Notes: generated by a model not told the origin, from the letters alone. A DNA stretch of 27,524 nt from an uncultured Gammaproteobacteria bacterium (GCA_964360885.1 CAYHYU010000002.1:1-27524); one strand, 5' to 3'; shown: positions 1 through 23,668, counted from the stretch's first letter. Numbers and translations are program-made.

Positions 1-548
1 AGCGCCGGCGCGCCGACGATATGCACACGCCACGGCTCTTCACCCATCTTGAGAATGCGTTCTGCAGAGTCCGGCGCCGCAGGAAAATGGAGATGCGATA
101 ATTTCGTGATCGCGTGGCGCGCAATTTCATCCACCGTGGACGTCACATCGCCGCCGTGAACGTGCGCCGTCGGAATGCCGAGATACAAGCACGCGTGCGC
201 GGCGCAGAGCATTTCCGGACGGTCACCGAGCGTGAGAAGGATGTCCGGCCGATCTTCGGCGAGGCGCGGCACAAGCGCGGAGAGAAGCACACTCGAAAAC
301 ATTGCCATTGCTTCTCGCGTGTCTCCGGCGAACGTCGCGGGAAGGCGGATCGCGTCCGGGAATTCCGCCTCGACCTCCGTGATCGTGTTGCCGAACTCGG
401 GCATCAGGTGCATCCCTGTCGCATACACGACGAGCCGAAGCTTCGCGCTTTTCGCGATCGCGCGGAGGACCGGCGTCATCAAACCAAAATCCGCCCGCGT
501 GCCGGTCACATAGGCAATTTTTTTATTCGTCGGCGAGATCATGTTCAT
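1..548 (-). CDS. neuC: UDP-N-acetylglucosamine 2-epimerase (hydrolysing), NeuC/LegG family; 5' part only, runs off the window edge (missed by the ORF track)
   Basis: Manual translation from ATG at 548 (alternative 542): MNMISPTNKKIAYVTGTRADFGLM...YATGMHLMPEFG...LGDRPEML...AHVHGGDVTSTVDEIARHAITKLSHLHF...ERILKMGEEPWRVHIVGAPA. These are NeuC-type motifs. The start overlaps the neuB stop. Confidence 0.93.
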   Translation of the reverse strand, partial: MNMISPTNKKIAYVTGTRADFGLMTPVLRAIAKSAKLRLVVYATGMHLMPEFGNTITEVEAEFPDAIRLPATFAGDTREAMAMFSSVLLSALVPRLAEDRPDILLTLGDRPEMLCAAHACLYLGIPTAHVHGGDVTSTVDEIARHAITKLSHLHFPAAPDSAERILKMGEEPWRVHIVGAPA

Positions 549-1584
549 GAAGTAATGCGTCAGCGATAAGGTCTGCAGCTGCTCTTTTTCCGAGAATACG
601 CTCATAGTTGGACGGCTGCATGCCTGTTCCTGGACGTTTTATACCGATATTTTCCCTCGTGAGAAGCTCTCCTTTCCGAATGGCTTTGATAGTCACAATA
701 CTTTTTCTCACGGCTGCACGCATTCCAAGTTCGCTCTCTGTTGGTTGCTTCTCGCGTTCTCCGAGCATGATGGAAATCTGACGTATCTCTTCCACGATTG
801 AACGAAACGCGCGCGGCTCGCATGAAGCTTTGTGATCCGGTCCGGGAAGAGTTTGATCAAGCGTAAAATGCTTCTCGATCACACAGGCACCAAGCGAAAC
901 AGCTATCCGTGGATACAACGGATGGGGCGAGTTGTCAGAATAGCCCACGGGGTAGGAAAACGATTCGTCGAGAGCGCGCAGCATGCGGAGATTGGTTTCC
1001 TCCGGAGGGCAGGGGTAGTTCGTCGTGCAGTGAAGCAAAATGATCTGATCGTTGCCCGCGCGCTCAATGCACGCGACCGCCTCACGCACTTCTTCGAGCG
1101 TTGCCATTCCGGTTGAAATGATCAGAGGCGCGTGAAAATCTGCGATGTATCGTAAAAAGGGAAGATTTGTGAGATCGCCTGAACCAATTTTATAGGCAAC
1201 CAAATCTATCGATCGAAGAAAATCGGCACTTTTTTCTCCTCCATGTGGGGTTGAGAGGAAGAGGATTTTTTTTTCTTGACAACGCTCTACAAGTTGCGGA
1301 TACCATGCTTCCGGTAATTCAAGTGCTTCAAGGAGCGCGCGTTGGCTCGTTGTTCTCCCTAAATTCTTTTTTTGGTAGTCAGCCATCTCTGCATCACCAA
1401 TCACAACATCTTCGGCGTGAAAGGTCTGAAATTTAACAGCATCTGCACCGGCTTCAGCGGCTGCATCAATGAGTTTTAATGCTAAATCCAATTGACCATT
1501 ATGATTCACGCCTGCTTCAGCGATCATAAACACGGGTTGGCCCTCTCCCACCCATCGGTCACCGATACGGACATGCTTCTTCAT
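523..1584 (-). CDS. neuB: N-acetylneuraminate/legionaminate synthase (NeuB family) with C-terminal SAF/antifreeze-like domain
   Basis: AEAGVNHNG, ADAVKFQT, IISTGMA, LLHCTTNYP, VGYSDN, IEKHFTLD..GPDHKAS, and C-terminal RKSIVTIKAIRKGE...KRPGTG. ATGA overlap with the upstream gene. Confidence 0.95.
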   Translation of the reverse strand: MKKHVRIGDRWVGEGQPVFMIAEAGVNHNGQLDLALKLIDAAAEAGADAVKFQTFHAEDVVIGDAEMADYQKKNLGRTTSQRALLEALELPEAWYPQLVERCQEKKILFLSTPHGGEKSADFLRSIDLVAYKIGSGDLTNLPFLRYIADFHAPLIISTGMATLEEVREAVACIERAGNDQIILLHCTTNYPCPPEETNLRMLRALDESFSYPVGYSDNSPHPLYPRIAVSLGACVIEKHFTLDQTLPGPDHKASCEPRAFRSIVEEIRQISIMLGEREKQPTESELGMRAAVRKSIVTIKAIRKGELLTRENIGIKRPGTGMQPSNYERILGKRAAADLIADALLHEHDLADE

Positions 1585-2564
1585 TCTCTCCTTTTAGCAG
1601 AATCTTCTAACGCAGACAAGGTCTCGAGATTTCGCAAGACATCCTCAAACGTATACGGATAGGTAGAAATGCCGCGAATCGCGTCGAGAAACGCCTTGAT
1701 CTCTTCGACGTACATCTCTTCGACGATGATGTAGCCCTCTTCCGTCTTTCCCTTTTCGATCGCGATGATCTCCGTTTCTTTCGACGCGAGCTTCACACGG
1801 ACTTCCGACGCCATCCAATCCCATTCGATGACGCCTTCAGAGCCCATGAGCGTGAGGGTGCGGAGCGGTTTTCGCGAAATCACGTCAATGAGGACGTTGC
1901 CGCGGACGTCGTTGCCATGGACGAGTGAAGCGGAAAGAATGTCGTCTGCCTCCATGTCGAGATCCGAGATGTGCGCGAGAAATCCCGTGACGTCCGAAAC
2001 AGGCGAGCTGACGAGCCAGTTGATCCAGCACAGCTCGAATGGAAAGAGCTCGCGGCACGCGCCCGTTTCTTTTTTCGAGAAGAACACGTTCCGATAATCC
2101 TCCCACGGATGCCAGTCCGGAAGATACTGACCGAGATGGTAGTCGTAGGCGAGAACCTTTCCGATCTTTCCTTCTTCGACCATCCGCTTGATCATCTTGA
2201 TCGGCGCGAAATGGCGGAACGTGCACGACGGCGCGCGGATGATGCCGTCGCCGGACGCGGCGATCGCTTCTTTCAACATTTCATCCGACGTCGTTGTTTC
2301 AACAAAAAAATGTGTGCGATCGTCAAGCGCTTTTTTGATATACGGCGCGTGAAGGTTCGGCGGCGTCGAAATGATCATCGCGTCGTACTCGTTGGACGCG
2401 ACTGCGATGATGTCCGCGACGGTTTTGATTCCGTGTTTTTCTTCCGCTTCCTTCCGACGATCCGCGGACACGTCAAATCCAACGACATCCTTCTCGTCGT
2501 TCGCGAAGAGATTGCGGATTCGCCGCTTTCCCATTGACCCGAGGCCGATGACGAGGAAGCGCAT
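1581..2564 (-). CDS. Gfo/Idh/MocA-family NAD(P)-dependent oxidoreductase (327 aa)
   Basis: True start is MRFLVIGLGSMGKRRIRNL at 2564 (Rossmann motif), 1 nt after the aminotransferase stop. GQYLPDWHPWEDYR motif. The ORF-track extension to 2936 overlaps the upstream gene. Confidence 0.88.
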   Translation of the reverse strand: MRFLVIGLGSMGKRRIRNLFANDEKDVVGFDVSADRRKEAEEKHGIKTVADIIAVASNEYDAMIISTPPNLHAPYIKKALDDRTHFFVETTTSDEMLKEAIAASGDGIIRAPSCTFRHFAPIKMIKRMVEEGKIGKVLAYDYHLGQYLPDWHPWEDYRNVFFSKKETGACRELFPFELCWINWLVSSPVSDVTGFLAHISDLDMEADDILSASLVHGNDVRGNVLIDVISRKPLRTLTLMGSEGVIEWDWMASEVRVKLASKETEIIAIEKGKTEEGYIIVEEMYVEEIKAFLDAIRGISTYPYTFEDVLRNLETLSALEDSAKRRE

Positions 2565-2565
2565 G

Positions 2566-3855
2566 TCAGTTGTATTTCCGGAACACGGGCGTGCACGGCT
2601 CGCCGATGAGCGGCGCATCGCGATACGCGCCGAGCGCCTCGTCGAACACGTCGAGCGTCTTCTGGATTTCCGCTTCCCCGTGCGCGAAGGAGATCGCGAA
2701 ATAACCTTGAAACAAAATCCCGCGCGTGATGACTTCCTGCAGAAATTTCGTGCGGAGAACAGGCGACGCATTTCCGTCGGCATCCTTGAACGCCATCGAG
2801 AGGTTTGGCGCAAAGCCGACGACCGACACCTGTTTTTCCAATCTGTGTTTCGCGATGCGCTCGAGAAGACCTGTTTTGAGTTTTTCACCCATTTTCCAAA
2901 AATGCTCTTGCACTCGATTCTTTTCCATGAAATCAAGCGCGGCGAGCGCGGCCGCGAGAGAAACCGTTTCCGCGCCGTGCGTCGTCGAGATCAAAAAGAC
3001 GCGCGGTGTGTCGTGATGCAATCCGCCGAGCTTCATGATGTCTTTCTTTCCGCCGAGAACGGACACGGAATATCCGTTTGCGATCCCCTTTCCGTACGTG
3101 ACGAGATCCGGTTGAAGATTGTATTTCGGGGCCGCGCCGCGGAGATCCCAGCGGAAGCCCGTGATCATTTCGTCGAGAATGAACACCGCGCCGTATTTCC
3201 GGCAGAGCGCCTGCACGCCCTCGAGAAATCCCGCCTTCGGCTCTTCCGTCGTGATCACTTCCATGATGACGCACGCGACGTCCGCGGGATGTTCCGCGAA
3301 AATCTTCTCGAGCGATGCGAGATCGTTGTAACGAAACGTCTTCGTGAGTCCTTTGATCTCGTCGGGGATCCCCGCGTCGCACGCGGTCGTGCCGATGAAC
3401 CAGTCGTCGTAGCTGAAGAACGGGTGGTCGGCGCAGGCAACGATCAGATCGCGTCCCGTATAGGCGCGCGCGAGCTTTGTGGCGGCCGTTGTGACCGTGG
3501 AACCATTCTTCGCGAATTTCACCATCTCAACGTTCGGAAGCGTCGAGATAAGTAGATCCGCCAGCTCGTATTCAATCGGATGCGGTCGCCCGAAATTGGT
3601 GCCTTGACCCATTTGCTTCTTTACAGCGCGATTTATTTCCGGGTGGCAGTGGCCGAGCGTCACCGAACGCAGCCCCATGCACCAATCGAGGTATTTCTTC
3701 CCGTCGCTTCCCCATACGTATGCTCCTTTGCCGCGGAGGATCGCTTTCGGTGCGACTTCGGGAAATTGGTCGTCGCCTTTTGAATACGTATGCGCGCCGC
3801 CCGGGATGAGTTCGTGGCGTCGGGCGATCAACTCATCGAATTTCGCGTGATCCAT
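2566..3855 (-). CDS. Class III PLP aminotransferase (glutamate-1-semialdehyde aminomutase-like), probably acting on a sugar
   Basis: GAYVWGSDGKKYLD, KFAKNGSTVT, FILDEMITGFR, PLP-lysine motif DLVTYGKGIANG, STTHGAETVSLAAA. Lies between neuA and neuB. Confidence 0.9.
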   Translation of the reverse strand: MDHAKFDELIARRHELIPGGAHTYSKGDDQFPEVAPKAILRGKGAYVWGSDGKKYLDWCMGLRSVTLGHCHPEINRAVKKQMGQGTNFGRPHPIEYELADLLISTLPNVEMVKFAKNGSTVTTAATKLARAYTGRDLIVACADHPFFSYDDWFIGTTACDAGIPDEIKGLTKTFRYNDLASLEKIFAEHPADVACVIMEVITTEEPKAGFLEGVQALCRKYGAVFILDEMITGFRWDLRGAAPKYNLQPDLVTYGKGIANGYSVSVLGGKKDIMKLGGLHHDTPRVFLISTTHGAETVSLAAALAALDFMEKNRVQEHFWKMGEKLKTGLLERIAKHRLEKQVSVVGFAPNLSMAFKDADGNASPVLRTKFLQEVITRGILFQGYFAISFAHGEAEIQKTLDVFDEALGAYRDAPLIGEPCTPVFRKYN

Positions 3856-3856
3856 A

Positions 3857-4579
3857 TCAAGAAAAGTTTTTAATCCGCTCCGCGATCTCGTCGCGGTGCG
3901 CGTGAATGAGTTCGCTCACGACAAAGTCCTGCGACTCGTCGATATCCGCCGCGCGCCAACGCTCGATCTCATAGCCGACAAGATTTCCGCCGACGAACGA
4001 TTTCTCGCGGCGCATGACGTCGGTCTTGATAAGGTAGATCATGCATCCATCGAATTTGTAAAATTTGGGATTCTCCTGCCGGTTCGTCATGAGTTTGGTG
4101 TCGTTCGGTAATATCGTGAGACGGTCTTCCGCATCTTTCATGAGTAGCCACGACTCCGTCTGACAGATGGATACGAGCGACTCGGCGTCCCGCGCCTGAA
4201 ACAACTCGACGGCGCGATCAATGTCTCCCGAACGCCGGAGCGGCGATGTCGTCTGCAGAAGAAGGAGATGCGTTGGTTCGTACCCTTCTGTCGCTTTCAA
4301 CGTATCGAGATGATGAAGCACCGCGTCCATGACCGGGCTCTTGTCGCCGGCCATCTCCGCGGGACGGAGAAACGGCACCTCCGCGCCATGCGTGCGCGAG
4401 ACGGAAGCGGTTTCTTCGTCTTCGGTCGAGACCATGATCCGGTCCACGTATTTCGATCCCTTCGCGCACTCGATGGAATACGCGATCAGCGGCTTGCCGT
4501 TAAATAGCCGGATGTTTTTCTTCGGCACGCCTTTCGAACCTCCGCGCGCCGGAATCAAGGCGAGAATTTTCATCTCCAT
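3857..4579 (-). CDS. neuA: Acylneuraminate cytidylyltransferase (CMP-nonulosonate synthetase)
   Basis: KILALIPARGGSKGVPKKNI, VSTEDEE, GAEVPFLRPAEMAGD, LLQTTSPLR, DIDESQDF. Confidence 0.94.
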   Translation of the reverse strand: MEMKILALIPARGGSKGVPKKNIRLFNGKPLIAYSIECAKGSKYVDRIMVSTEDEETASVSRTHGAEVPFLRPAEMAGDKSPVMDAVLHHLDTLKATEGYEPTHLLLLQTTSPLRRSGDIDRAVELFQARDAESLVSICQTESWLLMKDAEDRLTILPNDTKLMTNRQENPKFYKFDGCMIYLIKTDVMRREKSFVGGNLVGYEIERWRAADIDESQDFVVSELIHAHRDEIAERIKNFS

Positions 4580-4587
4580 ATTGTCCG

Positions 4588-4616
4588 AGGGTACGGAATT
4601 GCGGCCGGGTCGTCAA
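4588..4616 (-). promoter_or_regulatory. Putative sigma70 promoter for the neuA operon: TTGACG-17-TACCCT, 8 nt before the ATG
   Basis: Minus strand reads TTGACG acccggccgcaattccg TACCCT cggacaat ATG. The spacer is exactly 17 nt. Confidence 0.65.
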
Positions 4617-4634
4617 GATATGCGATATCCATTC

Positions 4635-5378
4635 CTACACGTCAATGCGAATGATCTTCCAAGGCAGGGCGAGGGCGCCGCTCATTTGAAGACGCCGGCC
4701 ATCTGCGAGTGAAACGGTGTACGTTCCCATTTGATTCGGAGAAGGCCGCGGCAGGTCGATGGGCATCTCGAAGTCACGGACTTCGAGATGAGATGCGCCG
4801 AGTTCCGCGAGGAACCGTTGGAACTTCGGTAAGCTGTAGATGTTGTAGTACGCGTTGAATCCGTCCTTCCCAGCTTCTTTTTCATATTCGCGAATCTTTA
4901 TCTCGAAATCAATGTCACCGTCGTAAAACAAGGAGCTCAAAAAAATATGGCGCTTCGTCACGGCAACCAACGCGCGAACAGCATCCTCGTAATACGGGAG
5001 CCAGGACAGCGTTTTCCAAATGATCGAGAGGTCAAACTGTTTCGGATACCGCATCGGAAGGTCGAGGATATCCCCGACCTCGAACGCGACGTTTGCCTCA
5101 TCCGCGTTGAGTTTCCGCGCCTCTTCAATGAGATAATCCGTCTGGTCAACGCCGAGAAACTGCGCGCGCGGGTTCATCTCCGCGAGAAGTCGGATAAGAT
5201 GGCCCACGCCGCAACCGGCATCGAACACGTTCGGGCTGCCGGCAAGATGCGGTCGAACCATGTCTTCAAGAATCTTGTCCATTTCCTGCTTTGTGGTGAG
5301 ATACTTCTTCATCGATGCGGTGTTGAACGTTTTATCGGCATCGCCTTTGAAATAGGTTGACGGGTTTGCGGAATCCAT
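4635..5378 (-). CDS. Class I SAM-dependent methyltransferase (247 aa)
   Basis: VFDAGCGVGHL SAM motif, FLGVDQTDYLIEEAR, FEVGDILDL, WKTLSWLP. Directly upstream of neuA. Confidence 0.85.
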   Translation of the reverse strand: MDSANPSTYFKGDADKTFNTASMKKYLTTKQEMDKILEDMVRPHLAGSPNVFDAGCGVGHLIRLLAEMNPRAQFLGVDQTDYLIEEARKLNADEANVAFEVGDILDLPMRYPKQFDLSIIWKTLSWLPYYEDAVRALVAVTKRHIFLSSLFYDGDIDFEIKIREYEKEAGKDGFNAYYNIYSLPKFQRFLAELGASHLEVRDFEMPIDLPRPSPNQMGTYTVSLADGRRLQMSGALALPWKIIRIDV

Positions 5379-5430
5379 AGGTAACCGGAGTGTAGATGAA
5401 AAAATTGTTTTGAGCTATATTGCCCAAAAC

Positions 5431-7869
5431 ATGCTAACCGCATTCGACCGCCTTCTCCAGAAACGACCAGTTTTCCTCATCTGCGTCGCGTTTCTGTGCT
5501 TGGCGCTGTTTCTGTTTGCTCCGATCCTGTTCGAAGAACGACTCTTTTCCGGCCTCTATGTGAATCTGTATCACGTCTTTTTTTTCGCCGGCCAGAAGTA
5601 TTTGATCTTTACGCTGCACCAATGGCCGAATTGGTGGCCGCATTTCGCTTCCGGATATCCCATCAGTCTCACGCTCGACGGGTTCCTGAATCCGATGTTC
5701 ATCCTCGCCCTGAAATTCCTGCCTGTCCTGCCGGCCTACGCGTGGCTGACCTTCTTCCTCTTCGTCGCGAATGGCGCGAGTTGTTACGCCTGCGCTCGCG
5801 CATTCTCGTTGACGCGCGCGGCGAGCGTCATCGCCGCACTCGCCTACGGTTTCAGCGGCATCATCATCCGCTGGACGGACGTCATCGTATTCGCGTCGAT
5901 CTTCCCGATCCTGCCGCTGTCTTTCCTCGCCGTCCTCAAGATCAAGCAGGGAAATCGCACATGGCGGTGGATCTGGACCGCGTTGCTGACCTACGCCTGG
6001 ATCGGCGGCTTCGCGGAGCTTCTGGTGTATGACCTGATCGCGATCGGCGCATTCTGCGTCACGCTCCTTCTCGCCGACAAACCGCTCACCCTGAAAAAAT
6101 TCATGCTCGACGGGTTTCGCCATTTTTTTCTCCCGGTCTTCGTCAGCGTCCTCCTCGTGTCCCCGTGGCTCGTCTCTGTGCTGTACTTCATCACGCATGA
6201 CACGATCCGCGCGGGCGGTCTTGCGGTTGCGGACGCGTCCAGTATGCCTCTCACGATTTCGTACCTCATCCACGTATTCCTTCCGCGCCTAAGCGTTTTC
6301 TACGGTGACAACATCCCCTACCTCCGGCTCGGCGACGATATCGACCTGTTTCTTGGAACCGTCCCAGTGCTTCTCCTCATCTCGCTGTTCTTCTCGTGGA
6401 AAAAGACCTCACAACGGCATCGCGGCTTTTTCGTCGGGCTTCTCGCGTTCGCGCTCCTCATGAGCTTTCGTTCCCCGATGTACCTGCTCCTTCATCAGCT
6501 CCCAGTCCTCAACTGGTTCCGATGGCATTTCAAATGGTCGTTCTTAACCGTGTTCGCGGCGGCGATACTCGCGGGGTATGCGATGGATGCACTGCGCGCC
6601 GTTATTCACGAACGATGGGCGAAACGGACGATCATCATTGGCTGGACCGCTCTCTGTCTCGCCGTGCTCGGATCTTTTTCCATCATGCGCTTCGCGCCGA
6701 CGCTGCAAAACAAAATTGTCAGCTTCGGCATGGCGCATTATGCGGCAAGCGCCTCACAAAACCTTTCCCGCTCCGCCGACTACTACGCCTGGCTTATCCG
6801 TCACATGGCGGATTCGCTCGTCCAAGGTCTGTCGCTTTCGAATCAATGGATCATACTCCTGTTTGCGCTGTGGGCGACGGCGCTCGCCTCGTTCACGATC
6901 ATCGCGTGGCAACGGATCTCATGGACGCGATCCAGACAGCTTCTCGTTCTCGCAACGGCGCTCGGATGCGTGCTGCCTTGGACCGGTTTTCTCGTCGGGC
7001 TCCCCAACCGATACCTCACGGAAGAACCGGCCACGGCCGCGTTCCTCCATCGAGCAAACGCGTACTGGGATCTCCCGGTGAGCGGAGCGCAAGCCGCGAC
7101 GCACGTCCCGTACCGTGTCTTCCCCTATTTTCCGGATCAATCCGTCGCCGACCTCCAAGACCGCTATCGCATCAATTTCGTGGATCACGACAACCGCTCG
7201 TGGCTGTCGCGCGAGATGCTGGATGACAATAACAATACGTGGTTCGGCATCGATGGCATGTTCAATCATGAACCGTTGACCGAGGCGCGCATGGCCGCCT
7301 TGTTCGAACAGGTCATGGGTCGGACAGCGACTGCGACGAAAGACTCGCTCGCCGCCAACATCCGATTCTTCTCCTCCACGCACACCGCGGAGCTACTCGG
7401 CATCGCGAACGTCAAATACGTCACCTCTCCTCATATTCTTGGTGGTCCGTGGAAACTCGCGCAGACGAGCCATATTCTCGAAAAACGAGTTCCCGTCTAC
7501 CTCTATGAAAATCCGTTTTTCCGGCCACGCTGGTATTTTGCCGATCGCGTTTCAGCGTCCGACGGCCTTTCTGACATGACGTTCCTGGAAAGGAAGGGCG
7601 CGGACGAATTGCAATTGGTCGCCTACACGGCGGGGCGTCTTGAACTCTCCACGAAAACGGCAGAAGGGCGTTGGATCGTGTTCAGCGAAACGGGCGTTCC
7701 GTTTTGGCGGGCCAAAATAGACGGCAAGAAGACGCCGCTCATTCGCGCGAATCTCGCGTATCAAGCCGTATTTGTTCCGGCAGGAACGGGGCATCGCGTC
7801 GAATTTTATTACCTCGCGTTCTGGGAGCAGGCGCGGGCGTCGCTCACGGCATTCATCAAGGGCCGTTGA
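5431..7869 (+). CDS. YfhO-family polytopic membrane protein (GT-C-like glycosyltransferase)
   Basis: Many hydrophobic segments, WWPHFASGYP near the N-terminus, and a YfhO-type C-terminus (WIVFSETGVPFWRAKIDGKKTPLIRANLAYQAVFVPAG.HRVEFYY). Start is ATG 5431 (alternative TTG 5410). Confidence 0.8.
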   Translation: MLTAFDRLLQKRPVFLICVAFLCLALFLFAPILFEERLFSGLYVNLYHVFFFAGQKYLIFTLHQWPNWWPHFASGYPISLTLDGFLNPMFILALKFLPVLPAYAWLTFFLFVANGASCYACARAFSLTRAASVIAALAYGFSGIIIRWTDVIVFASIFPILPLSFLAVLKIKQGNRTWRWIWTALLTYAWIGGFAELLVYDLIAIGAFCVTLLLADKPLTLKKFMLDGFRHFFLPVFVSVLLVSPWLVSVLYFITHDTIRAGGLAVADASSMPLTISYLIHVFLPRLSVFYGDNIPYLRLGDDIDLFLGTVPVLLLISLFFSWKKTSQRHRGFFVGLLAFALLMSFRSPMYLLLHQLPVLNWFRWHFKWSFLTVFAAAILAGYAMDALRAVIHERWAKRTIIIGWTALCLAVLGSFSIMRFAPTLQNKIVSFGMAHYAASASQNLSRSADYYAWLIRHMADSLVQGLSLSNQWIILLFALWATALASFTIIAWQRISWTRSRQLLVLATALGCVLPWTGFLVGLPNRYLTEEPATAAFLHRANAYWDLPVSGAQAATHVPYRVFPYFPDQSVADLQDRYRINFVDHDNRSWLSREMLDDNNNTWFGIDGMFNHEPLTEARMAALFEQVMGRTATATKDSLAANIRFFSSTHTAELLGIANVKYVTSPHILGGPWKLAQTSHILEKRVPVYLYENPFFRPRWYFADRVSASDGLSDMTFLERKGADELQLVAYTAGRLELSTKTAEGRWIVFSETGVPFWRAKIDGKKTPLIRANLAYQAVFVPAGTGHRVEFYYLAFWEQARASLTAFIKGR

Positions 7870-9396
7870 CTACTTCGATGGCCGAAATTCGCGCAAGATT
7901 GAAAAAGCGGTATGCGATGGACCTTGTCCGACCAGCTTTCCAACGATGAACAATAGCACGTAATACAAAACTCCGAGTCCGACGAGGATGCCGACGTTCT
8001 GCCCATGGTTCCTCTGTCCGGCGAAGACGGCGCGCAGTGCCAGGTCGACAAAAATAACGCCCGTGCAGGAAACCGTCGCGCTCACGAACGCCGGCACAAA
8101 CAGGTTCCGGTGCATTCGCATGACGCGTTTCGCACGCAGAAGGACGTAGCTGGACAACATGATCCACGTCGCAACCACGGCCCACGCGAGCCCGTTCATG
8201 CCGCCGAACCGGTATCCGGCATACATGAACGGCAACGTGACGATCACGCGAATGATATTCGTCTTAAAATTGATGTCCGGCCGGCCGAGCGCCGCAAGAA
8301 TGGGGGCAACGATTCCGGCGAACGCGAGGAGCAAGTTTCCGAACGCAAAAATTTTCAACGGTTCGACGATCGGCATCCATTTCGGTCCAAGAAACAACGC
8401 GACGATCGCTCCCCCTTCGACAAGAAGAAGGAGCGTGAACGGCAAACTGCTCAAGATGAGCACGTCCATGCTTTTCACGAAACCTTCTTGGACCTTATTC
8501 AGACGGTCCTGAACTTTCGCGAACGCCGCGAATCCAATCTTGCTGATCATGGAGGCGACGGTGTTCGTGGCGGTTGACGCGAGATCTTTCGCTTTGGCGT
8601 AGATGCCGAGCTGGCTCGCCGCCATGAGGCGCCCGACGAAAATCTTGTCGATTTGAGCGATGATCACGTCAAGCACTTCCTGGCCGTAAATCCATTTCGT
8701 GAACCCAAGGAGCTCCACGAGGGTACGGAACTGAAACGAGAACGATGGCCGTACGGGATAGATGGCGTAACTCACGAACACGCCCACGACATTCTGCGCG
8801 ACCGCGCCGATCAAAAGCGCCCAAGCGGACCGACTGACGAAAAACGCGTATCCGACCGTGACGACGGAGGCGGTCGCTTGAATCACGATGTCCCGGTAAA
8901 AAATCTTGCGATATTCGAGTTCTTTATAGAGATAAATCGTGCGAATGTTGGAACACGCCGGAAGGATGAGGAGCAGACCGCTTGTTTTGATGAGCAACAC
9001 GAGAGAAGGATCCGTCACGTGAAAAAACGCGGCGAGCGGTGACCCGAACGCATAGACGAGCAGCGCGAGCGCGCTTGAACGCAGGAGATCGAACGTGAAC
9101 AGCGGGCTTAAAAATTTCTCGATTGAACCTTGACGCTGCATGAGTGCATCGCCGAACGAAATGGTCGTGAGCTGGTTCAGGGGAATCACAACCGCCATCA
9201 CGATCGTTATGATGCCGTAATCGTTCGGCGCGAGGAGACGGGCCAATATAAAAAACGTGACAAGGTTCAGGGTCTTCTGGCCGATGACGCTCGCCATGTA
9301 CCACGATCCGCTTTTGATTGACTTGCGATAGATTCCGCCGGGCGCAAACTCCGGAGACGCATGTGACGGCGCGTCGTTCGTGGACGTATCGATCAT
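7870..9396 (-). CDS. wzx: Polysaccharide flippase (Wzx/WzxC-like, PST family)
   Basis: ILARLLAPNDYGI, FGDALMQ, GFTKWIYGQEVLDVIIAQIDKIFVGRLM...LGIYAKA, and about 12 or more hydrophobic segments. Confidence 0.9.
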   Translation of the reverse strand: MIDTSTNDAPSHASPEFAPGGIYRKSIKSGSWYMASVIGQKTLNLVTFFILARLLAPNDYGIITIVMAVVIPLNQLTTISFGDALMQRQGSIEKFLSPLFTFDLLRSSALALLVYAFGSPLAAFFHVTDPSLVLLIKTSGLLLILPACSNIRTIYLYKELEYRKIFYRDIVIQATASVVTVGYAFFVSRSAWALLIGAVAQNVVGVFVSYAIYPVRPSFSFQFRTLVELLGFTKWIYGQEVLDVIIAQIDKIFVGRLMAASQLGIYAKAKDLASTATNTVASMISKIGFAAFAKVQDRLNKVQEGFVKSMDVLILSSLPFTLLLLVEGGAIVALFLGPKWMPIVEPLKIFAFGNLLLAFAGIVAPILAALGRPDINFKTNIIRVIVTLPFMYAGYRFGGMNGLAWAVVATWIMLSSYVLLRAKRVMRMHRNLFVPAFVSATVSCTGVIFVDLALRAVFAGQRNHGQNVGILVGLGVLYYVLLFIVGKLVGQGPSHTAFSILREFRPSK

Positions 9397-9402
9397 GAAC
9401 GA

Positions 9403-9432
9403 AAGATACGGTCAGGCGTGACGCATTGTCAA
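9403..9432 (-). promoter_or_regulatory. Putative sigma70 promoter for wzx: TTGACA-18-TATCTT, 6 nt before the ATG
   Basis: Minus strand reads TTGACA atgcgtcacgcctgaccg TATCTT tcgttc ATG. The -35 is a perfect consensus match. Confidence 0.65.
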
Positions 9433-9454
9433 ATACGCCAGATGCCGTTAGGAT
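9426..9454 (+). promoter_or_regulatory. Putative sigma70 promoter for the FkbM methyltransferase: TTGTCA-17-TAGGAT, 8 nt before the ATG
   Basis: Plus strand reads TTGTCA aatacgccagatgccgt TAGGAT aaccggat ATG. Its -35 overlaps the opposite-strand -35 of wzx. Confidence 0.6.
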
Positions 9455-9462
9455 AACCGGAT

Positions 9463-10314
9463 ATGGGACAAACCACCGTCGTGCTCCCTCGCGTAAAAAA
9501 AGTGTATCGTGCGCTCGTACGCAACCCCTCGGTGGATCGCGCGGTTCACGGCGCGTTGAACGTCCTTGTCGGGTCGCTCGCCCGCGCGCGGGGATTCGCT
9601 TTTCCGAAAAAATTCAACTGGGATTGGAAATGGGAAATGCTCATGGGGTTGTACGAAAAAGAGACGGTCGCCCTCTGTCGCCGCATGATCAAACCGGGCA
9701 TGCGCGTCTTGGACATCGGCGCACATGCAGGATACTTCACAATACTGTATTCGAAGCTCGTCGGACCGGACGGCTCGGTCCTGGCGTTTGAACCGGATCC
9801 GGAAAACTACGCGCTTCTGGAACGGAACACTCGACATCTCAAGAATGTCCGACTGTTTCCCGTGGCCGTTTCCAATCACGTCGGCATGGTGGATTTTTTT
9901 GAAACCGAAAACAACACCGGCTGCCACAGTCTCATCCCGGCGGGATTTCGCCCGAAAAAAATTTCGGTTTCCGCGACCACGCTCGATGCGCTGCTGGATG
10001 CCGGCGAATTGCCGAAAGTCGATTTCATCAAAATAGACATTGAAGGCGCGGAACCGATCGCGTTCCAAGGCATGCACCGCGTGATTGCCGCCAACCCACA
10101 CATCGCTCTCGTCGTCGAGTTCTGCCCGGACAACCTCCGCGATAGCCACACCGATCCAAGCGCATTCATCGAAACGCTGCGTGGCTTCGGTCTTCACGTG
10201 TATGCGATCAAAGACGAGGGGCTGAAAGAAATCATCCCGGAACACAGCCGAAACGGACAGTTCTTCTTAAAGAATCATTGCGTGAACCTTTTTCTGTCGC
10301 GCGAACCGGCCTAA
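9463..10314 (+). CDS. FkbM-family methyltransferase
   Basis: YEKET, PGMRVLDIGAHAGYFT, VLAFEPDPENY, TTLDALL, VDFIKIDIEGAEP. Confidence 0.93.
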   Translation: MGQTTVVLPRVKKVYRALVRNPSVDRAVHGALNVLVGSLARARGFAFPKKFNWDWKWEMLMGLYEKETVALCRRMIKPGMRVLDIGAHAGYFTILYSKLVGPDGSVLAFEPDPENYALLERNTRHLKNVRLFPVAVSNHVGMVDFFETENNTGCHSLIPAGFRPKKISVSATTLDALLDAGELPKVDFIKIDIEGAEPIAFQGMHRVIAANPHIALVVEFCPDNLRDSHTDPSAFIETLRGFGLHVYAIKDEGLKEIIPEHSRNGQFFLKNHCVNLFLSREPA

Positions 10315-10344
10315 AACCGATGGGAAATGCTGCGGCTCCGACGC

Positions 10345-10373
10345 TTGCCAAAACGTCGGTTTCGATATACATT
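10345..10373 (+). promoter_or_regulatory. Putative sigma70 promoter TTGCCA-17-TACATT upstream of the 10403 gene
   Basis: TTGCCA at 10345-50, 17-nt spacer, TACATT at 10368-73. The -35 lies inside a CCGACG/CGTCGG inverted repeat. Confidence 0.5.
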
Positions 10374-10402
10374 CGTCTTCACATCCGCCTATTTTAAGGT
10401 CT

Positions 10403-11899
10403 ATGAAAGGTTGTTTTGTCCTCCAGCGCCGTTTCGCCTACATCGGCCACTACCTCGCGCAACTGCTCAAGGAGCAATACGGCGTCGAGGAGTTTTGCGG
10501 CATCACCTACACGCGACCGAGCTACGAATTCCTCCTGAAGCAGCAGGATGTCCTGTATTCCACGCTGCTGCTCGATGAAGAGATCCACGCCCGATATAAA
10601 AATGAAACGCTGGATCCGGCATTCCTCGACCGGTTGGAAAAAGAGTACGGAATCCCCTATCTGTGGCCGTTCCTCGCCGTGGACCGCGTCGTGATGTCAA
10701 ACCAGCTCGTGCGCGAATATCCGCATGATCAGCCGCGCTATTCGCACGAAGACATGCTCCGGTTGATTCAAGTCTCCGCCAAAGCCGTGATCAATCTTCT
10801 CGATATGGAGAAACCTGATTTCTTATTCGTCGGACCCATCGGCAGCGTGTCGAACTATCTTCTGTATCGCATCGCCAAAAAACGCGGCATCCGATGTTTC
10901 TTGCTGCTCATGACGAGCACGCGTAACCGATATATTTTGAGCGAAGACTACGACACGTTCAGCTGGGTCAACGAACGGTTCCGCACGGAACGTGCCGCGC
11001 TCGCCTCTTCTCCCATGCGCCAAGCGGCGGCGGATTTTTTGAAGCAATTCAGAGAGAAACCGCTTCCGTATTTCGACAAATCCGCGCCGTCGCAGCAACC
11101 CGTTTCACGTCGGAAACAACTGAAATTTTTGAATCCGATCAATGCCGCAAAATCGCTCACAATTTTTTTTGGCAACTTCTACCGATTTTACACGAGCCCG
11201 GGTCATCAGGACTATTCCGCCATTCATCCCTGGAATTACGTGAAGGACCTCGCCAAACGCAAGATACGCAATCTCATCGGCTCGAACGATCTGTACGATC
11301 CGTTCACTCCCGATGAAGACTTCGTCTTTTTCCCGTTGCATTACGAACCGGAAATTTCCCTCCTGCTTCAAGCGCCGACGCACACGGACCAGGTCGCGTT
11401 GATCCGCCAGATCTCGCGCTCCCTTCCGGTGCGGTTCAAACTCTACGTGAAGGACCATCCGGAAATGGCGCAGTACCGGCCGCGCTCGTACTACAAGGAG
11501 CTCAAAAAAAATCCGAACGTGAAACTGATCGACCCCTGCATCAGCAGCTTCGCCATTACGCCCAAAGCGAAACTCGTCACGACCATCACGGGCACGACGG
11601 GGTGGGAAGCGATCATGTTGAAAAAACCGGTCGTGAGTTTCGGCCATCAATTCTACAACGAGCTGTCCATGGTAAAATATTGCGCCGAGATGGAATCGTT
11701 ACCGCGATTGATCAAAGAACAGCTCGAACGATTCAGCCACGACGAAAGCGAGCTTCTCGATTATCTCACGGCGCTCTTTGAAGATTCCGCGGAACTGAAT
11801 CTCCATCATCTGTGGATGGACGAGCCGGATTTCGCCAAGAAAAAAGACGGGATGAAGCCCGTCGCCGCACTGTTGGCAAAAAAACTTCATTTGACGTAG
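10403..11899 (+). CDS. Capsule_synth/KpsS-like (GT107-like) protein; candidate CMP-ulosonic acid transferase
   Basis: C-terminal motifs FVFFPLHYEPE, LYVKDHP, TITGTTGWEAIMLKKPVVSFG..FY are typical of the KpsS/Capsule_synth family. No TM segments. Confidence 0.7.
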   Translation: MKGCFVLQRRFAYIGHYLAQLLKEQYGVEEFCGITYTRPSYEFLLKQQDVLYSTLLLDEEIHARYKNETLDPAFLDRLEKEYGIPYLWPFLAVDRVVMSNQLVREYPHDQPRYSHEDMLRLIQVSAKAVINLLDMEKPDFLFVGPIGSVSNYLLYRIAKKRGIRCFLLLMTSTRNRYILSEDYDTFSWVNERFRTERAALASSPMRQAAADFLKQFREKPLPYFDKSAPSQQPVSRRKQLKFLNPINAAKSLTIFFGNFYRFYTSPGHQDYSAIHPWNYVKDLAKRKIRNLIGSNDLYDPFTPDEDFVFFPLHYEPEISLLLQAPTHTDQVALIRQISRSLPVRFKLYVKDHPEMAQYRPRSYYKELKKNPNVKLIDPCISSFAITPKAKLVTTITGTTGWEAIMLKKPVVSFGHQFYNELSMVKYCAEMESLPRLIKEQLERFSHDESELLDYLTALFEDSAELNLHHLWMDEPDFAKKKDGMKPVAALLAKKLHLT

Positions 11900-11912: not shown

Positions 11913-12707
11913 ATGAATATCGGGATTATTGGTCTTGGCGTTGTCGGTAACGCTGTCAAACATGGACTGGAAAAAATCGGACATACCGTGCTTGTATTTG
12001 ATATCAAGCATCCAGAGACAAAATTGGAACACGTGCTCGACACGGAACTCACGTTCGTGAGCGTCCCGACGCCGTGCACGGAAGACGGCGCCTGCGATAC
12101 GCGAATCGTCGAACAGATCGTGCATGAACTTCAGCGGGAGAACTATCGCGGACTCACGGTCATTAAATCCACCGTCACGCCTGGCACGACCGACCGTCTC
12201 ATCAAAGAAACGGGGCTTCGTGTAGCATTCTGCCCGGAATTTTTACGTGAACGCGCGGCCTACACGGATTTTGTGGAGAATCATGACGTGTGCGTCGTCG
12301 GGACGTACGATCAAAAAGCATTCGACCTCGTCCGTGCGGCACACGGTCCGCTGCCGAAGAAGATCATCCATCTCACGCCCATCGAAGCGGAGCTCTGCAA
12401 ATATTTTGCAAATATCTTTAATGCGCTTCGGATCACTTTTGCAAACGAGTTTTACGACGTCGCAATGACGCTCGGTGCGGATTACACACGCATCAAAAAC
12501 GCGATGGTGAATCGTGCCAACATCACGGACGTCTATCTCGACTGCAATGAGAACTTCCGCGGATTCGGGGGTGTGTGCTTGCCAAAAGATACGCAAGCAT
12601 TCGCCGTGTTCGTCAAAACAATGGGGTTGAACCTTACATTGTTCGAAACCCTCGTCGAAGAAAATAAAAAATTCAAACGCACCATCCACGAAGGTATGCG
12701 CGAATAA
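11913..12707 (+). CDS. UDP-glucose/GDP-mannose dehydrogenase family protein, short form lacking the C-terminal domain (264 aa)
   Basis: GIIGLGVVG, FVSVPTP, IKSTVTPGTT, FCPEFLRE, AELCKYFAN, and the catalytic-Cys motif GFGGVCLPKD. Confidence 0.9.
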   Translation: MNIGIIGLGVVGNAVKHGLEKIGHTVLVFDIKHPETKLEHVLDTELTFVSVPTPCTEDGACDTRIVEQIVHELQRENYRGLTVIKSTVTPGTTDRLIKETGLRVAFCPEFLRERAAYTDFVENHDVCVVGTYDQKAFDLVRAAHGPLPKKIIHLTPIEAELCKYFANIFNALRITFANEFYDVAMTLGADYTRIKNAMVNRANITDVYLDCNENFRGFGGVCLPKDTQAFAVFVKTMGLNLTLFETLVEENKKFKRTIHEGMRE

Positions 12708-12716
12708 CAACACACT

Positions 12717-13694
12717 ATGAACACCGTTCTCGTCACAGGAAGCGAAGGGAATATCGGCACGTATCTGGTGCAGGCCATTCAGCGTCTTCAACCGGACATG
12801 CGCATCATTCGTGTGAAGTTGCGTGAACAGGAAGATGCATCATTGAAGAACGGAAACGTGTACGTCGGAGATCTGCGCGATCCGGCATTCGTGTCGAATC
12901 TATTCACCGAAAATCAGATCGACTACGTCATACATGGAGCCGCGCGTCTCTATGGCGTTGCTGGATTCAACGAAGATGTCTATGGCATATTGAGCAACGA
13001 TGTGGAGTGCTTATTGAACGTCCTCGATCAGTGCAAAACAATCAAAAAATTCGTGTACATGTCCTCTTCCATGGTCTATGAGTCAAGCGAAAGAGTCCCA
13101 TTCACGGAAGAACTGGCTGATGAAATCATGCCGCCGAAATCTTCGTACGGTCTCACGAAATTCTTTGGCGAAAAGGCCGTGAAGTTTTTCTCGCAGCAAT
13201 ACGGGTTGAACTATACGATCTGGCGACCGTTCAACGTGGTCTCGCCGCTCGAACCGCATGACCGTAAAGGCGGACACGTCTTCATCGATTTCTATAAACG
13301 TCTTTTCGTCGACCGTGTCCCGAACATTGAAATCTATGGTAACGGACAACAGGTCCGATGCTTCACGTGGGTCGAAGACGTCGTCGAGGCCATTGCCGGA
13401 TCTCTGACGAATATCCTCACGGACAAACAGGTCTTTAATATCGGGAGCAGCGAACCAAAAACGATGATCGACCTCAAAAACGTACTGATTGAGATCGGGA
13501 AAGAACAAAACCTATTGCCACAGGACTACAATCCAGAAACGACAATCGGAAGCCAATCATTCATTGTCGACGTCCAACTGCGCATCCCAAGTACGGAGAA
13601 AATCACACGGATTCTCGGTTGGACCTGCGCAACGAACTTCAAATCCTGCTTCGAAAAATTCGTCGCCTACAAGAAGGAACATGCACACGCGTAA
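12717..13694 (+). CDS. NAD-dependent nucleotide-sugar epimerase/dehydratase (extended SDR)
   Basis: VTGSEGNIG, YMSSSMVY, YGLTK (YxxxK), RPFNVVSP, GNGQQVRCFTWVEDVVEA. Confidence 0.92.
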   Translation: MNTVLVTGSEGNIGTYLVQAIQRLQPDMRIIRVKLREQEDASLKNGNVYVGDLRDPAFVSNLFTENQIDYVIHGAARLYGVAGFNEDVYGILSNDVECLLNVLDQCKTIKKFVYMSSSMVYESSERVPFTEELADEIMPPKSSYGLTKFFGEKAVKFFSQQYGLNYTIWRPFNVVSPLEPHDRKGGHVFIDFYKRLFVDRVPNIEIYGNGQQVRCFTWVEDVVEAIAGSLTNILTDKQVFNIGSSEPKTMIDLKNVLIEIGKEQNLLPQDYNPETTIGSQSFIVDVQLRIPSTEKITRILGWTCATNFKSCFEKFVAYKKEHAHA

Positions 13695-14886
13695 CTGCCA
13701 GATGTGCGGAGCGGATGATCTTGCGCCGATCATTGATCTTGGACATCATCCGCTGGCGGATACGTTTTTGCCGTCGCACCATCTGAACCAATCCGAGACA
13801 CGATATCCATTACGCGTCCTCCTTTGCAAACAGTGCGGCTACGCGACGCTTAGCCACGTCGTTTCGCAGGAAGAACGCTACCAGGGAGTTGATTACAGTT
13901 ACACCGCGTCAAATTCGCCAGTGTCAATTTCGCACTTCACGGACATGGCAAAGGACATCGGTGGCGCTGTCGAAATCAACGCGGGAGATCTTGTGGTCGA
14001 TATCGGCTCAAGCGACGGCACGCTTTTACGCTCCTTTCGTGAACAGTCAGGATGTCGTATCCAAGGCGTTGAACCAGCCAAAAACATTGCGGAATCTGCC
14101 GAACGGAATGGCATCCCGACGATCAATGATTTTTTTACTTCTTCGACCGTGTCGCGCATCGTCTCGAATGGCAAGGCACAAGTGATCACCGCGACCAACG
14201 TGTATAACCATATCACGGACATGAACGCATTCATGGAAAATATTCTGGCCGCACTCACGAACGATGGGATGTTCATCTTCGAGACGCCATCGCTTCTGGA
14301 TCTCATCCGGCGTACGGCTTTCGACACTATTTATCTTGAACACGTGTCGTATTTCGGCGTGAAACCGCTCGCGCGTTTCTATAAAAAATTTGGCTTGTAC
14401 ATTCACAAAATCGAGCTGAACGACTACATGGGCGGATCCATGCGCGTGTACGTAAGTAAGATGCCAGCCGACTCCCATGTCGCCGATGCATTCATTCGCA
14501 TGGAAGAAACCGCCGGAAGTTACGATCCGGCGACCTACGCGTCGTTCATGAATCGGGTCCACGCCTTCAAGTTCGATCTCTGTCGCGAGCTGTATGCGAT
14601 CAAAGCACGTGGCGGCAAGATCATCGGCATTGGGGCAGCGACGAAAGGCAATACCCTTCTCAATTATTGTAAAATTGACGGCTCAATTCTCGAATTCATT
14701 ACGGACAATTCTCCGCTTAAGATCGGTAAGTACACGCCAGGTTCGCATATCCCCATCAAAAGCGACGCGGATATTCATTCCGGCGTGACACACGCGCTCA
14801 TCCTGCCATGGAACATCGGGGATTTTCTGAAAGAGAAACTGAAACATCTCAAGCTTGACTTCATCGTCCCATCCATGGGACGATAG
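13681..14886 (+). CDS. NDP-sugar C-methyltransferase (TylCIII/TcaB9/NovU-like) with N-terminal Zn site (401 aa)
   Basis: Start MHTRNCQMCG at 13681. CxxC..CxxC, DLGHHPLAD, VVDIGSSDGTLL, FDTIYLEHVSYF, GGSMRVY, and C-terminal IGIGAATKGNTLLNY. Confidence 0.92.
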   Translation: MHTRNCQMCGADDLAPIIDLGHHPLADTFLPSHHLNQSETRYPLRVLLCKQCGYATLSHVVSQEERYQGVDYSYTASNSPVSISHFTDMAKDIGGAVEINAGDLVVDIGSSDGTLLRSFREQSGCRIQGVEPAKNIAESAERNGIPTINDFFTSSTVSRIVSNGKAQVITATNVYNHITDMNAFMENILAALTNDGMFIFETPSLLDLIRRTAFDTIYLEHVSYFGVKPLARFYKKFGLYIHKIELNDYMGGSMRVYVSKMPADSHVADAFIRMEETAGSYDPATYASFMNRVHAFKFDLCRELYAIKARGGKIIGIGAATKGNTLLNYCKIDGSILEFITDNSPLKIGKYTPGSHIPIKSDADIHSGVTHALILPWNIGDFLKEKLKHLKLDFIVPSMGR

Positions 14887-18260: not shown

Positions 18261-19047
18261 AAATGGTTGCCGCGATGGTTTCAGCGCCCGGCAAGCGCGC
18301 GAGAAGATAATCCAGGTACTTCAACGGATGCAGGACGATCATGAACACATAGTTCAGGAATTTGCGCAGCGGGGAAATCCCGAATGAGAAGAGAAGAGAG
18401 AGCCACGAGGCGAACACCGTCAGCATGCCGGACGTCGGACCCATGGCCACGCCCTGCTCGACAATGCGGCATCCCGGCAAGAGACGCGAAACGCCCTCAG
18501 TGCTCCAGCGCGCGTAATCTTTCGGCGACGGGTGAAGCGGATAGACAAATGGGACGCCGATATAGATCCAACCGCCCGACTTCGTCACGCGCAGGAGTTC
18601 TCGCATGACCTCATGCGGATCTTTGACATGCTCAAGGACCTGATCGCATATCGCGACATCAAATGCGCTGTCGACAAAAGGCAGGCGCTCGGCCGCGGCG
18701 AGGACGTCGACGTTGGGGAAGGGAAAAATGTCCACGGTGACCACGGACGGATGAAGGCGCGTATGGCCCGATCCGATATCCACGATCCGCTCCGATCCGA
18801 CAAACCGGCGCATAAACGCATTCGCGGTCAGTCCGGTGAACAGGATCGGCGAGACACACAACGCAAGACGATCATAAAAGCGCGGCCAGCGTTTGAAAAA
18901 ATTCTTAAACGCGTTTTCTCGATCGCTCGCCATGTCCGCCTCCGCAAGACGCCGCTCGTCCTCGAAAAGAAAATCCGGAACGCCAGACGTCGACCGAAGC
19001 GGAGGAAGGGCGAAGAGATCTTTTAGGCGTTCAGCATCCATAGACAT
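18238..19047 (-). CDS. Class I SAM-dependent methyltransferase (type 11)
   Basis: Likely start MSMDAERL at 19047, 1 nt after the upstream stop. IVDIGSG, DVLAAAERLPFVDSAFD, QVLEHVKDP, VPFVYPLH..PKDYARW. Confidence 0.88.
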   Translation of the reverse strand: MSMDAERLKDLFALPPLRSTSGVPDFLFEDERRLAEADMASDRENAFKNFFKRWPRFYDRLALCVSPILFTGLTANAFMRRFVGSERIVDIGSGHTRLHPSVVTVDIFPFPNVDVLAAAERLPFVDSAFDVAICDQVLEHVKDPHEVMRELLRVTKSGGWIYIGVPFVYPLHPSPKDYARWSTEGVSRLLPGCRIVEQGVAMGPTSGMLTVFASWLSLLFSFGISPLRKFLNYVFMIVLHPLKYLDYLLARLPGAETIAATIYVVARKD

Positions 19048-19048
19048 C

Positions 19049-21013: not shown

Positions 21014-21042
21014 TTGGACAAAAAATGCCAGTAGACTACCCT
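21014..21042 (+). promoter_or_regulatory. Putative sigma70 promoter TTGGAC-17-TACCCT, 6 nt before ATG 21049
   Basis: TTGGAC aaaaaatgccagtagac TACCCT tgtggc ATG. The -10 hexamer is identical to the one upstream of neuA. Confidence 0.45.
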
Positions 21043-21048
21043 TGTGGC

Positions 21049-23666: not shown

Positions 23667-23668
23667 AT

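Follow-up and report, generated by a model that had tools for sequence, protein, structure and literature searches.

A predicted legionaminic-type nonulosonate operon with a probable PtmF-type oxidoreductase and a widespread class III aminotransferase

Which sugar is made by an operon that carries neuA, neuB and neuC, and what do an oxidoreductase and a class III aminotransferase do in their midst? Nonulosonic acids are found on flagella, S-layers, capsules and lipopolysaccharides, where they influence recognition by hosts and phages. We asked both questions for a stretch of 27,524 nucleotides (GCA_964360885.1, CAYHYU010000002.1:1-27524; the window), listed as DNA of an uncultured Gammaproteobacteria bacterium. 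Judged from its genes, the operon is a pathway for a cytidine monophosphate (CMP)-activated 5,7-diamino-tetradeoxy nonulosonic acid, of the legionaminic type or a stereoisomer of it, and the window holds the upstream half. This reassigns the window from the sialic acid pathway to a legionaminic-type pathway. The oxidoreductase is a known, poorly understood companion of the CMP-synthetase gene legF, and the class III aminotransferase is its widespread partner. For the pair itself we lean, tentatively, towards a step in the supply of an amino-sugar precursor.

The window is the entire contig C2 of its genome, so the contig end cuts neuC. The genome has 863 kb in 104 contigs, and marker genes put its completeness at 100%. 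The closest relatives of its proteins are from Patescibacteria; the host of the operon is a tiny-genome bacterium of the candidate phyla radiation. Six minus-strand genes lie head to tail. The gaps between them, calculated from the coordinates and read from the methyltransferase towards neuC, are 55, 1, 1, -4 and -26 nucleotides, and the tight coupling described in a first-pass annotation of the window, with a methyltransferase just upstream of neuA, is thereby confirmed. AT3 is our shorthand for the class III aminotransferase at 2566-3855 and Gfo for the oxidoreductase at 1581-2564. The six genes are:

4635-5378, minus strand: class I S-adenosylmethionine (SAM) methyltransferase, accessory; matches Methyltransf_31, Methyltransf_25 and Methyltransf_11
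3857-4579, minus strand: NeuA/LegF-type CMP-nonulosonate synthetase; PF02348; PseF model TIGR03584 at 148 bits, under its cut-off
2566-3855, minus strand: class III pyridoxal phosphate (PLP) aminotransferase AT3, similar to glutamate-1-semialdehyde aminomutase (GSAM); PF00202 at 145 bits; NF004856 at 572 bits, cut-off 486
1581-2564, minus strand: Gfo/Idh/MocA oxidoreductase, probable PtmF homologue, 327 residues; PF01408, PF22725 and PF02894
523-1584, minus strand: NeuB/LegI-type nonulosonate synthase; PF03102 and SAF domains; TIGR03569 at 419 bits, cut-off 400
3-548, minus strand: NeuC/LegG-type hydrolysing nucleotide-sugar 2-epimerase, N-terminal half, 182 residues; PF02350; TIGR03568 positions 1-175 of 365

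The start of Gfo at 2564 agrees with the N-termini of its homologues. The neuA gene gives the single match to PF02348 (CTP_transf_3) in the whole genome.

Where does the operon go after the contig ends? Its continuation lies at the end of another contig of the same genome, C34, which carries the sole DegT-family gene of the genome. The orientation of the genes there fits a junction between the end of C34 and the start of C2:

C34:9170-8997: C-terminal 58 residues of neuC; found by tblastn with the NeuC of locus L005
C34:8599-8991: hexapeptide acetyltransferase; adjoins the DegT gene
C34:7475-8599: DegT aminotransferase; PF01041 at 404 bits
C34:6427-7524: 4,6-dehydratase of the PF02719 type; best solved relatives 6bwc (268 bits) and PseB 2gn4 (247 bits)

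The bridge between the two contigs is L005, a 139-kb contig that carries the closest relative of AT3 (89% identity). Its order is unbroken: NeuA, AT3, Gfo, NeuB, NeuC (374 residues), acetyltransferase, DegT aminotransferase and dehydratase. By tblastn, residues 20-193 of the L005 NeuC fall on C2:524-3 and residues 317-374 on C34:9170-8997. A single neuC is hence split between C2 and C34, and about 123 codons (about 370 nucleotides) of it are missing from the assembly. The first-pass annotation stated that the window has neither a DegT aminotransferase nor a 4,6-dehydratase. This is literally so, yet both stand just past the contig edge, and the premise that genes of the pseudaminic and legionaminic type are absent arose because that edge splits the operon.

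On C34 and in L005 alike, the dehydratase is followed directly by three genes that resemble succinyl-CoA ligase and citryl-CoA lyase (C34, our locus L004, 3869-6424, minus strand; L005 16977-19532), and the 89%-identical relative thus keeps the trio. Its members are a succinyl-CoA-ligase beta-like gene (ATP-grasp_2 and Citrate_bind), an alpha-like gene (CoA_binding) and a short gene like citrate synthase or citryl-CoA lyase. The set looks like an ATP-citrate lyase in split form, or like a citryl-CoA synthetase with a lyase. They might provide acetyl-CoA or another acyl-CoA for N-acylation.

The base sugar is probably a 5,7-diamino nonulosonate and not N-acetylneuraminic acid (Neu5Ac), because dehydratase, DegT aminotransferase and acetyltransferase continue the operon. 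Together with the NeuC/LegG-type 2-epimerase, the NeuB-family synthase and the CMP-synthetase, the dehydratase, the DegT 4-aminotransferase and the N-acetyltransferase complete the set by which a legionaminic-type cluster is recognised. All six canonical enzymes of such a route are present. The same six enzyme types (LegB, LegC, LegH, LegG, LegI and LegF) serve the CMP-legionaminic pathway of Campylobacter jejuni and Campylobacter coli, Plesiomonas shigelloides and Vibrio, where PtmE, PtmF and PtmA accompany them; here, too, they lie in one operon. The nearest solved relatives point the same way. The full-length NeuC of L005 is closest to the GDP/UDP-diacetylbacillosamine 2-epimerase 5xvs (180 bits); the sialic acid enzyme GNE comes behind it with 154 bits. 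The best match of the window's NeuB is SpsE of Bacillus subtilis (244 bits); a pseudaminic acid synthase reaches 210 bits and the Neu5Ac synthase of meningococci 188. PseG has no match in the genome, which is complete by markers but lies in many contigs.

In the proposed route, the canonical enzymes would turn uridine diphosphate N-acetylglucosamine (UDP-GlcNAc) into a 4-keto-6-deoxy sugar, then into its 4-amino and 4-acetamido forms. The 2-epimerase would then free a diacetamido-trideoxy-hexose, which would be condensed with phosphoenolpyruvate and finally activated with CMP. The dehydratase is of the PF02719 PseB/Pen/CapE type and closer to these three than to PglF, so the route is probably UDP-linked, unlike that of the Campylobacter and Plesiomonas clusters. 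Known UDP-linked routes share several features with this one. Those of Legionella pneumophila (NeuC, NeuB and NeuA with UDP-diacetylbacillosamine) and of B. subtilis (sps) have in common with it the affinity of NeuC to the GDP/UDP-diacetylbacillosamine 2-epimerase, an SpsE-like synthase and a PF02719 dehydratase. Unlike the operon described here, neither has been described with a pair of Gfo and class III aminotransferase. We make no claim on the configuration of the product, as a PseB-like dehydratase would leave isomers other than D-glycero-D-galacto possible.

How much remains of the sialic acid pathway that the gene names suggest? The first-pass annotation took NeuC, NeuB and NeuA as a base pathway to CMP-Neu5Ac. 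An operon for CMP-Neu5Ac alone would have no dehydratase, 4-aminotransferase or acetyltransferase coupled to neuC and neuB, and here all three come straight after neuC. The annotation itself had named legionaminic genes beyond the window edge as something that would overturn its proposal, and such genes are what we find, on C34 and contiguous in L005. A plain CMP-Neu5Ac pathway in which the aminotransferase is the haem enzyme GSAM is thus very improbable. It has model names on its side: NeuB matches TIGR03569, which is named N-acetylneuraminate synthase, AT3 passes the cut-off of NF004856, an NCBIfam 'equivalog' named glutamate-1-semialdehyde 2,1-aminomutase, and the closest solved structures of AT3 are GSAMs. 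The genes after neuC and the nearer kinship of NeuC and NeuB to legionaminic-type enzymes contradict its first half, and we reject the plain NeuABC reading on these grounds. Its second half is contradicted by the HemL equivalog model TIGR00713, which AT3 fails with 227 bits against a cut-off of 527, by the absence of hemB (PF00490) from the window genome and by the sugar clusters in which the aminotransferase family sits in nearly all of 85 loci. On the score and the lack of hemB we reject the idea that AT3 is HemL.

What, then, is AT3? The PF00202 match and a conserved PLP lysine make it a class III (fold type I) PLP aminotransferase. Its Lys256 is invariant in 16 homologues and aligns with the region of the PLP lysine in the GSAM structure 4e77. 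We surveyed the genomic context of the family in those 85 loci from many phyla. Fourteen have neuB nearby. The other 71 are O-antigen-like modules outside neu contexts, with a glucose-1-phosphate cytidylyltransferase-like gene, an enzyme of the short-chain dehydrogenase/reductase (SDR) epimerase/dehydratase family, a C-methyltransferase and a DUF4910 protein. In a maximum-likelihood tree, 69 of these 71 cytidine diphosphate (CDP)-hexose-context rows form one well-supported clade. The 17 rows outside it, including that of the window, are all nonulosonate-linked or compatible with such a link. We therefore describe AT3, as far as the tree and gene contexts tell, as a member of a nonulosonate-linked branch of a sugar aminotransferase family misnamed glutamate-1-semialdehyde aminomutase. 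Because the members sit in sugar clusters and the window genome lacks hemB, the NF004856 name is misleading; on these proteins it is probably a systematic misannotation. A curated model thus names them glutamate-1-semialdehyde aminomutase even in genomes without a haem pathway. The first-pass annotation had held that homologues found mostly without neu genes would speak against its proposal. This holds across the whole family but does not hold on the branch to which the window's protein belongs.

A C-methyltransferase of the kind that accompanies the non-nonulosonate clade (37 of its 71 loci) is also present in the window, at 13489-14886 on the plus strand (Methyltransf_13, Methyltransf_23 and Methyltransf_14). 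An SDR epimerase/dehydratase gene at 12717-13694 adjoins it.

The partner of AT3 belongs to a sharply defined subfamily, in which the motifs GLGSMGKRR and LPDWHPWE are invariant in our alignment. In a collection with one genome per bacterial or archaeal species, at least 570 stretches encode a relative. We studied 79 of these loci in detail, with flanks of 8 kb, which can miss genes. CTP_transf_3 is present in 70 of the loci and adjoins Gfo in 55; NeuB is present in 64. AT3 is present in 55 loci as well and adjoins Gfo in 44. Carriers include cultured Arcobacter, Campylobacter concisus, Helicobacter cinaedi, Legionella bononiensis, Pedobacter, Sphingobacterium, Azospirillum and Paenibacillus. 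Hence aminotransferase and oxidoreductase are a recurrent pair that co-occurs with neuB, neuA and neuC in many phyla, in support of the first-pass annotation. A blastn search with a gammaproteobacterial neuB-neuC stretch against complete Escherichia coli genomes gave no match.

Gfo is a probable PtmF-type oxidoreductase of legionaminic clusters. The PtmF of Plesiomonas shigelloides, a 326-residue oxidoreductase encoded between legF and ptmE, is 46% identical to that of C. coli (PMC4481668). The window's protein has the Gfo/Idh/MocA fold, a similar length and, like PtmF, a place beside the CMP-synthetase gene of a legionaminic-type cluster. It is 40% identical to a homologue in a ptmE-legF-Gfo operon of C. 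concisus. A common order in Bacteroidota, Campylobacterota and Betaproteobacteria is NeuB, NeuC, a nucleotidyltransferase with CBS domains, Gfo/CTP_transf_3, AT3, an optional CN_hydrolase and an SDR that matches the NCBIfam PtmA model with 232 bits. We take the order in C. jejuni to be ptmE, ptmF, legF, ptmA; the common order is then the same with AT3 added. In group III islands of Aeromonas, a CBS-domain protein and a Gfo/Idh/MocA oxidoreductase stand ahead of pseF (PMC7874193). The idea of an unusual insertion embedded in the operon does not hold for the oxidoreductase, since a PtmF-type gene stands beside legF in canonical clusters (PMC4481668, PMC7874193) and 24 of the 79 loci have Gfo without the aminotransferase. 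These 24 loci are mostly from Patescibacteria and are otherwise complete legionaminic-type operons, so Gfo must have a role that is independent of AT3.

The trio WbuX, HisH and HisF, which makes up an acetamidino module, nearly excludes AT3: WbuX is found in 12 of the 24 loci without AT3 and in 5 of the 55 with it. Lineage may account for this pattern, given that the loci without AT3 are mostly from Patescibacteria, or the two may be alternative partners.

What does the pair do where both genes occur? To oxidise and then transaminate is the natural and a plausible reading; the substrate is a prediction. Our preferred placement, which we hold tentatively and prefer to the addition of a third amino group to the completed sugar, is early: the pair would perform an oxidise/transaminate step in the supply of an amino-sugar precursor. 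The reaction of Gfo and AT3 might be, for example, the amination of a keto nucleotide sugar or ketose phosphate. The amino donor would be glutamine in many relatives, because there AT3 is followed by CN_hydrolase, a possible omega-amidase that could remove 2-oxoglutaramate. The nitrogen that the pair installs would then be one of the two already known, and an ordinary, possibly methylated, legionaminic-type sugar would result.

Several observations lead us to this early placement. AT3 tracks the PtmE-like CBS-nucleotidyltransferase (18 of the 55 loci with AT3, none of the 24 without) and CN_hydrolase (11 of 55 and none of 24), and in the common order it lies between legF and ptmA. The Plesiomonas study divides the pathway into a GDP-GlcNAc-forming and a CMP-legionaminic-acid-forming segment and puts ptmA in the first, so that PtmA, and with it PtmF, is assigned to precursor formation (PMC4481668). 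Finally, the window genome has no GlmS above the cut-off. The weak GlmS matches in it are the glutaminase parts of two open reading frames of about 650 residues (window 21780-23750, minus strand, and contig C6:2447-2833).

A number of points weigh against this placement. In a phylum sample of 251 genomes, 114 have GlmS above the cut-off; one unpublished genome (G150) is in these tallies, and none of our claims depends on it. The oxidoreductase occurs in three of the 251; the other two carriers have GlmS, and three genomes of the same family lack both. On these few counts the pair does not look like a general substitute for GlmS. A PtmE-like CBS-nucleotidyltransferase, a PtmA-like SDR and a CN_hydrolase are all missing from the window genome; the first two absences also set it apart from the Campylobacter and Plesiomonas pathway. 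A Campylobacter pathway study reportedly assigned PtmF and PtmA to hexosamine-phosphate formation, a biochemically unexpected task for two proteins with NAD(P) oxidoreductase folds. Furthermore, the tightest coupling of the oxidoreductase is to the CMP-synthetase gene, next to which it stands in the 55 loci counted above. A glucose-1-phosphate cytidylyltransferase-like gene accompanies the sister clade of AT3, a hint at a cytidine-nucleotide sugar as substrate. A fusion of methyltransferase and Gfo, described below, fits late tailoring better. The early model also leaves the 24 loci with Gfo and without AT3 unexplained, most of which have no PtmA-like SDR nearby. The PtmF identity of Gfo, on which part of the argument leans, is itself read from family, size, operon position and literature.

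Alternatively, the pair may act late. CMP-synthetase, Gfo and AT3 would work in sequence on the finished legionaminic-type sugar: after CMP activation, Gfo would oxidise the C8 (less likely the C4) hydroxyl and AT3 would aminate it. The result would be a 5,7,8-triamino nonulosonate, which the methyltransferase may N-methylate. We regard this as possible but doubtful. One argument for it is the gene order, with CTP_transf_3, Gfo and AT3 as the most conserved block of the surveyed loci. Alphaproteobacteria and archaea have compact modules of radical SAM enzyme, NeuB', CTP_transf_3, Gfo and AT3. Because no NeuC or DegT gene is nearby, the pair must itself supply the amino group there. An acetyltransferase of the GNAT family stands beside AT3 in one such module (L009) and elsewhere in the locus in another (L143). 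The CDP-hexose-like modules of the AT3 sister clade make cytidine-nucleotide sugars plausible substrates of the family, and in one locus the methyltransferase is fused to Gfo. Sugars of this kind also exist. The O-antigen of Flexibacter (Tenacibaculum) maritimum holds an 8-amino-3,5,7,8,9-pentadeoxy-nonulosonate whose genes are not known (PMC3210612, PMC9796276), and CMP-ulosonic acids of Magnetospirillum gryphiswaldense have masses that fit three sugar nitrogens and lose ammonia on fragmentation (bioRxiv 10.64898/2026.04.20.719630).

Against late amination stands, besides the assignment of PtmA and PtmF to the GDP-GlcNAc-forming segment, the presence of Gfo without AT3 in 24 loci and the tracking of AT3 with the PtmE-like nucleotidyltransferase (18 loci versus 0). 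In C. jejuni, ptmF and ptmA occupy the corresponding place in the operon, yet the legionaminic acid derivatives that it makes are ordinary ones. The operon has one acetyltransferase only. Neither sugar is linked to these genes: the text of the paper on the T. maritimum O-antigen cluster gives no nonulosonate genes and hence no tie to the 8-amino sugar, and for the oxidoreductase of a Magnetospirillum metagenome-assembled genome the protein collection offers no relative closer than 59% identity and hence no tie to the M. gryphiswaldense sugars. If late amination is true, these are the genes to which triamino nonulosonates, for instance the 8-amino sugar of T. maritimum, can be traced, and the many species with this block make such sugars. 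The proposal of the first-pass annotation, a side-chain hydroxyl swapped for an amino group by the pair, survives in part. The pair is recurrent and adjacent, and its oxidise/transaminate chemistry is plausible, but the base on which it was to act is not Neu5Ac.

There is a further way to place the amino group. Gfo could oxidise C4 of UDP-GlcNAc and AT3 aminate it, so that the hexosamine would gain the nitrogen that becomes N7 of the nonulosonate without 6-deoxygenation; the product would be a 9-hydroxy 5,7-diamino nonulosonate. In another version, the pair would make a separate amino sugar of the same glycan. We consider this unlikely. Some loci, for example L125 and L135, fit it, with NeuA, Gfo, AT3, NeuB, NeuC and an acetyltransferase and no DegT or dehydratase gene within 8 kb. 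DegT is detected in 26 of the 55 loci with AT3 but in 17 of the 24 without, counts that flanks of this length can lower. Gfo/Idh/MocA enzymes that oxidise UDP-sugars are known, and Gfo has a weak NCBIfam match to UDP-GlcNAc 3-dehydrogenase. However, most complete loci, and this operon with them, have the dehydratase and DegT aminotransferase as well, nothing ties the pair to another sugar, and the close association with the CMP-synthetase gene would go unexplained.

Do known systems contain the same combination? The published Campylobacter and Plesiomonas clusters list no class III aminotransferase, while here one stands beside the oxidoreductase. In a published table, the legionaminic locus of Tannerella forsythia has ptmE adjoining legF and neither the oxidoreductase nor a class III aminotransferase. 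Closer matches are the group I flagellin islands of Aeromonas (PMC7874193) and the lipopolysaccharide locus of L. pneumophila serogroup 6 (PMC3694923). In both, a class III aminotransferase annotated as glutamate-1-semialdehyde aminomutase and an oxidoreductase stand beside the CMP-nonulosonate synthetase gene, as they do here. These loci differ in being of the pseudaminic type with PseG, and the Aeromonas oxidoreductase is an aldo/keto reductase, not a Gfo enzyme. The Aeromonas glycan-mass paper ties no mass to the presence of the aminotransferase.

In chemical logic the pair resembles KdnB/KdnA, which make Kdo8N in Shewanella, as well as WbpB/WbpE and NtdC/NtdA: a sugar hydroxyl is oxidised and the carbonyl is then transaminated. 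The likeness to KdnB/KdnA, which the first-pass annotation had drawn, is one of logic only, as the partner here is a Gfo/Idh/MocA enzyme and not of the KdnB type. KdnB belongs to the iron alcohol dehydrogenases, and WbpE and NtdA are aminotransferases of the DegT type. We found no assay of this class III aminotransferase in the literature searched. Depending on its substrate, the enzyme would either revise the first steps of the textbook legionaminic pathway or reveal a route to triamino nonulosonates.

The methyltransferase at the head of the operon is a looser companion. It is missing upstream of neuA in the closest relative L005, and homologues of it occur in 9 of the 79 Gfo loci. A tie to the module, as the first-pass annotation had suggested, is nonetheless borne out in one genome. 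At 9001-10737 of locus L203, a single gene encodes a fusion of methyltransferase and Gfo with 578 residues; its methyltransferase part shares 33% identity with the protein of the window. CTP_transf_3 flanks the fusion on one side and the class III aminotransferase on the other, and the locus also has two NeuB genes and a radical SAM/SPASM gene.

Methyltransferases are frequent elsewhere in the window. Besides the C-methyltransferase, there are five SAM-methyltransferase genes, at 4635-5378 (the one in the operon), 9463-10314, 18238-19068, 19049-20029 and 21025-21783; one is of the FkbM type. So many such genes suggest a heavily methylated glycan.

Divergent from the operon, at 5410-7869 on the plus strand, is a gene for a YfhO-like membrane protein of 819 residues, and a Capsule_synth (PF05159) protein is encoded at 10403-11899, also on the plus strand. 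Both genes recur beside the nonulosonate operon in L005 and in a locus from Marinimicrobia (L010). Their products are candidate transferases for the activated sugar. Two short open reading frames, of 264 and 274 residues, resemble UDP-glucose/GDP-mannose dehydrogenases and have the N-terminal and central domains only; they lie at 11913-12707 of the window (plus strand) and at 2999-3823 of C34 (minus strand).

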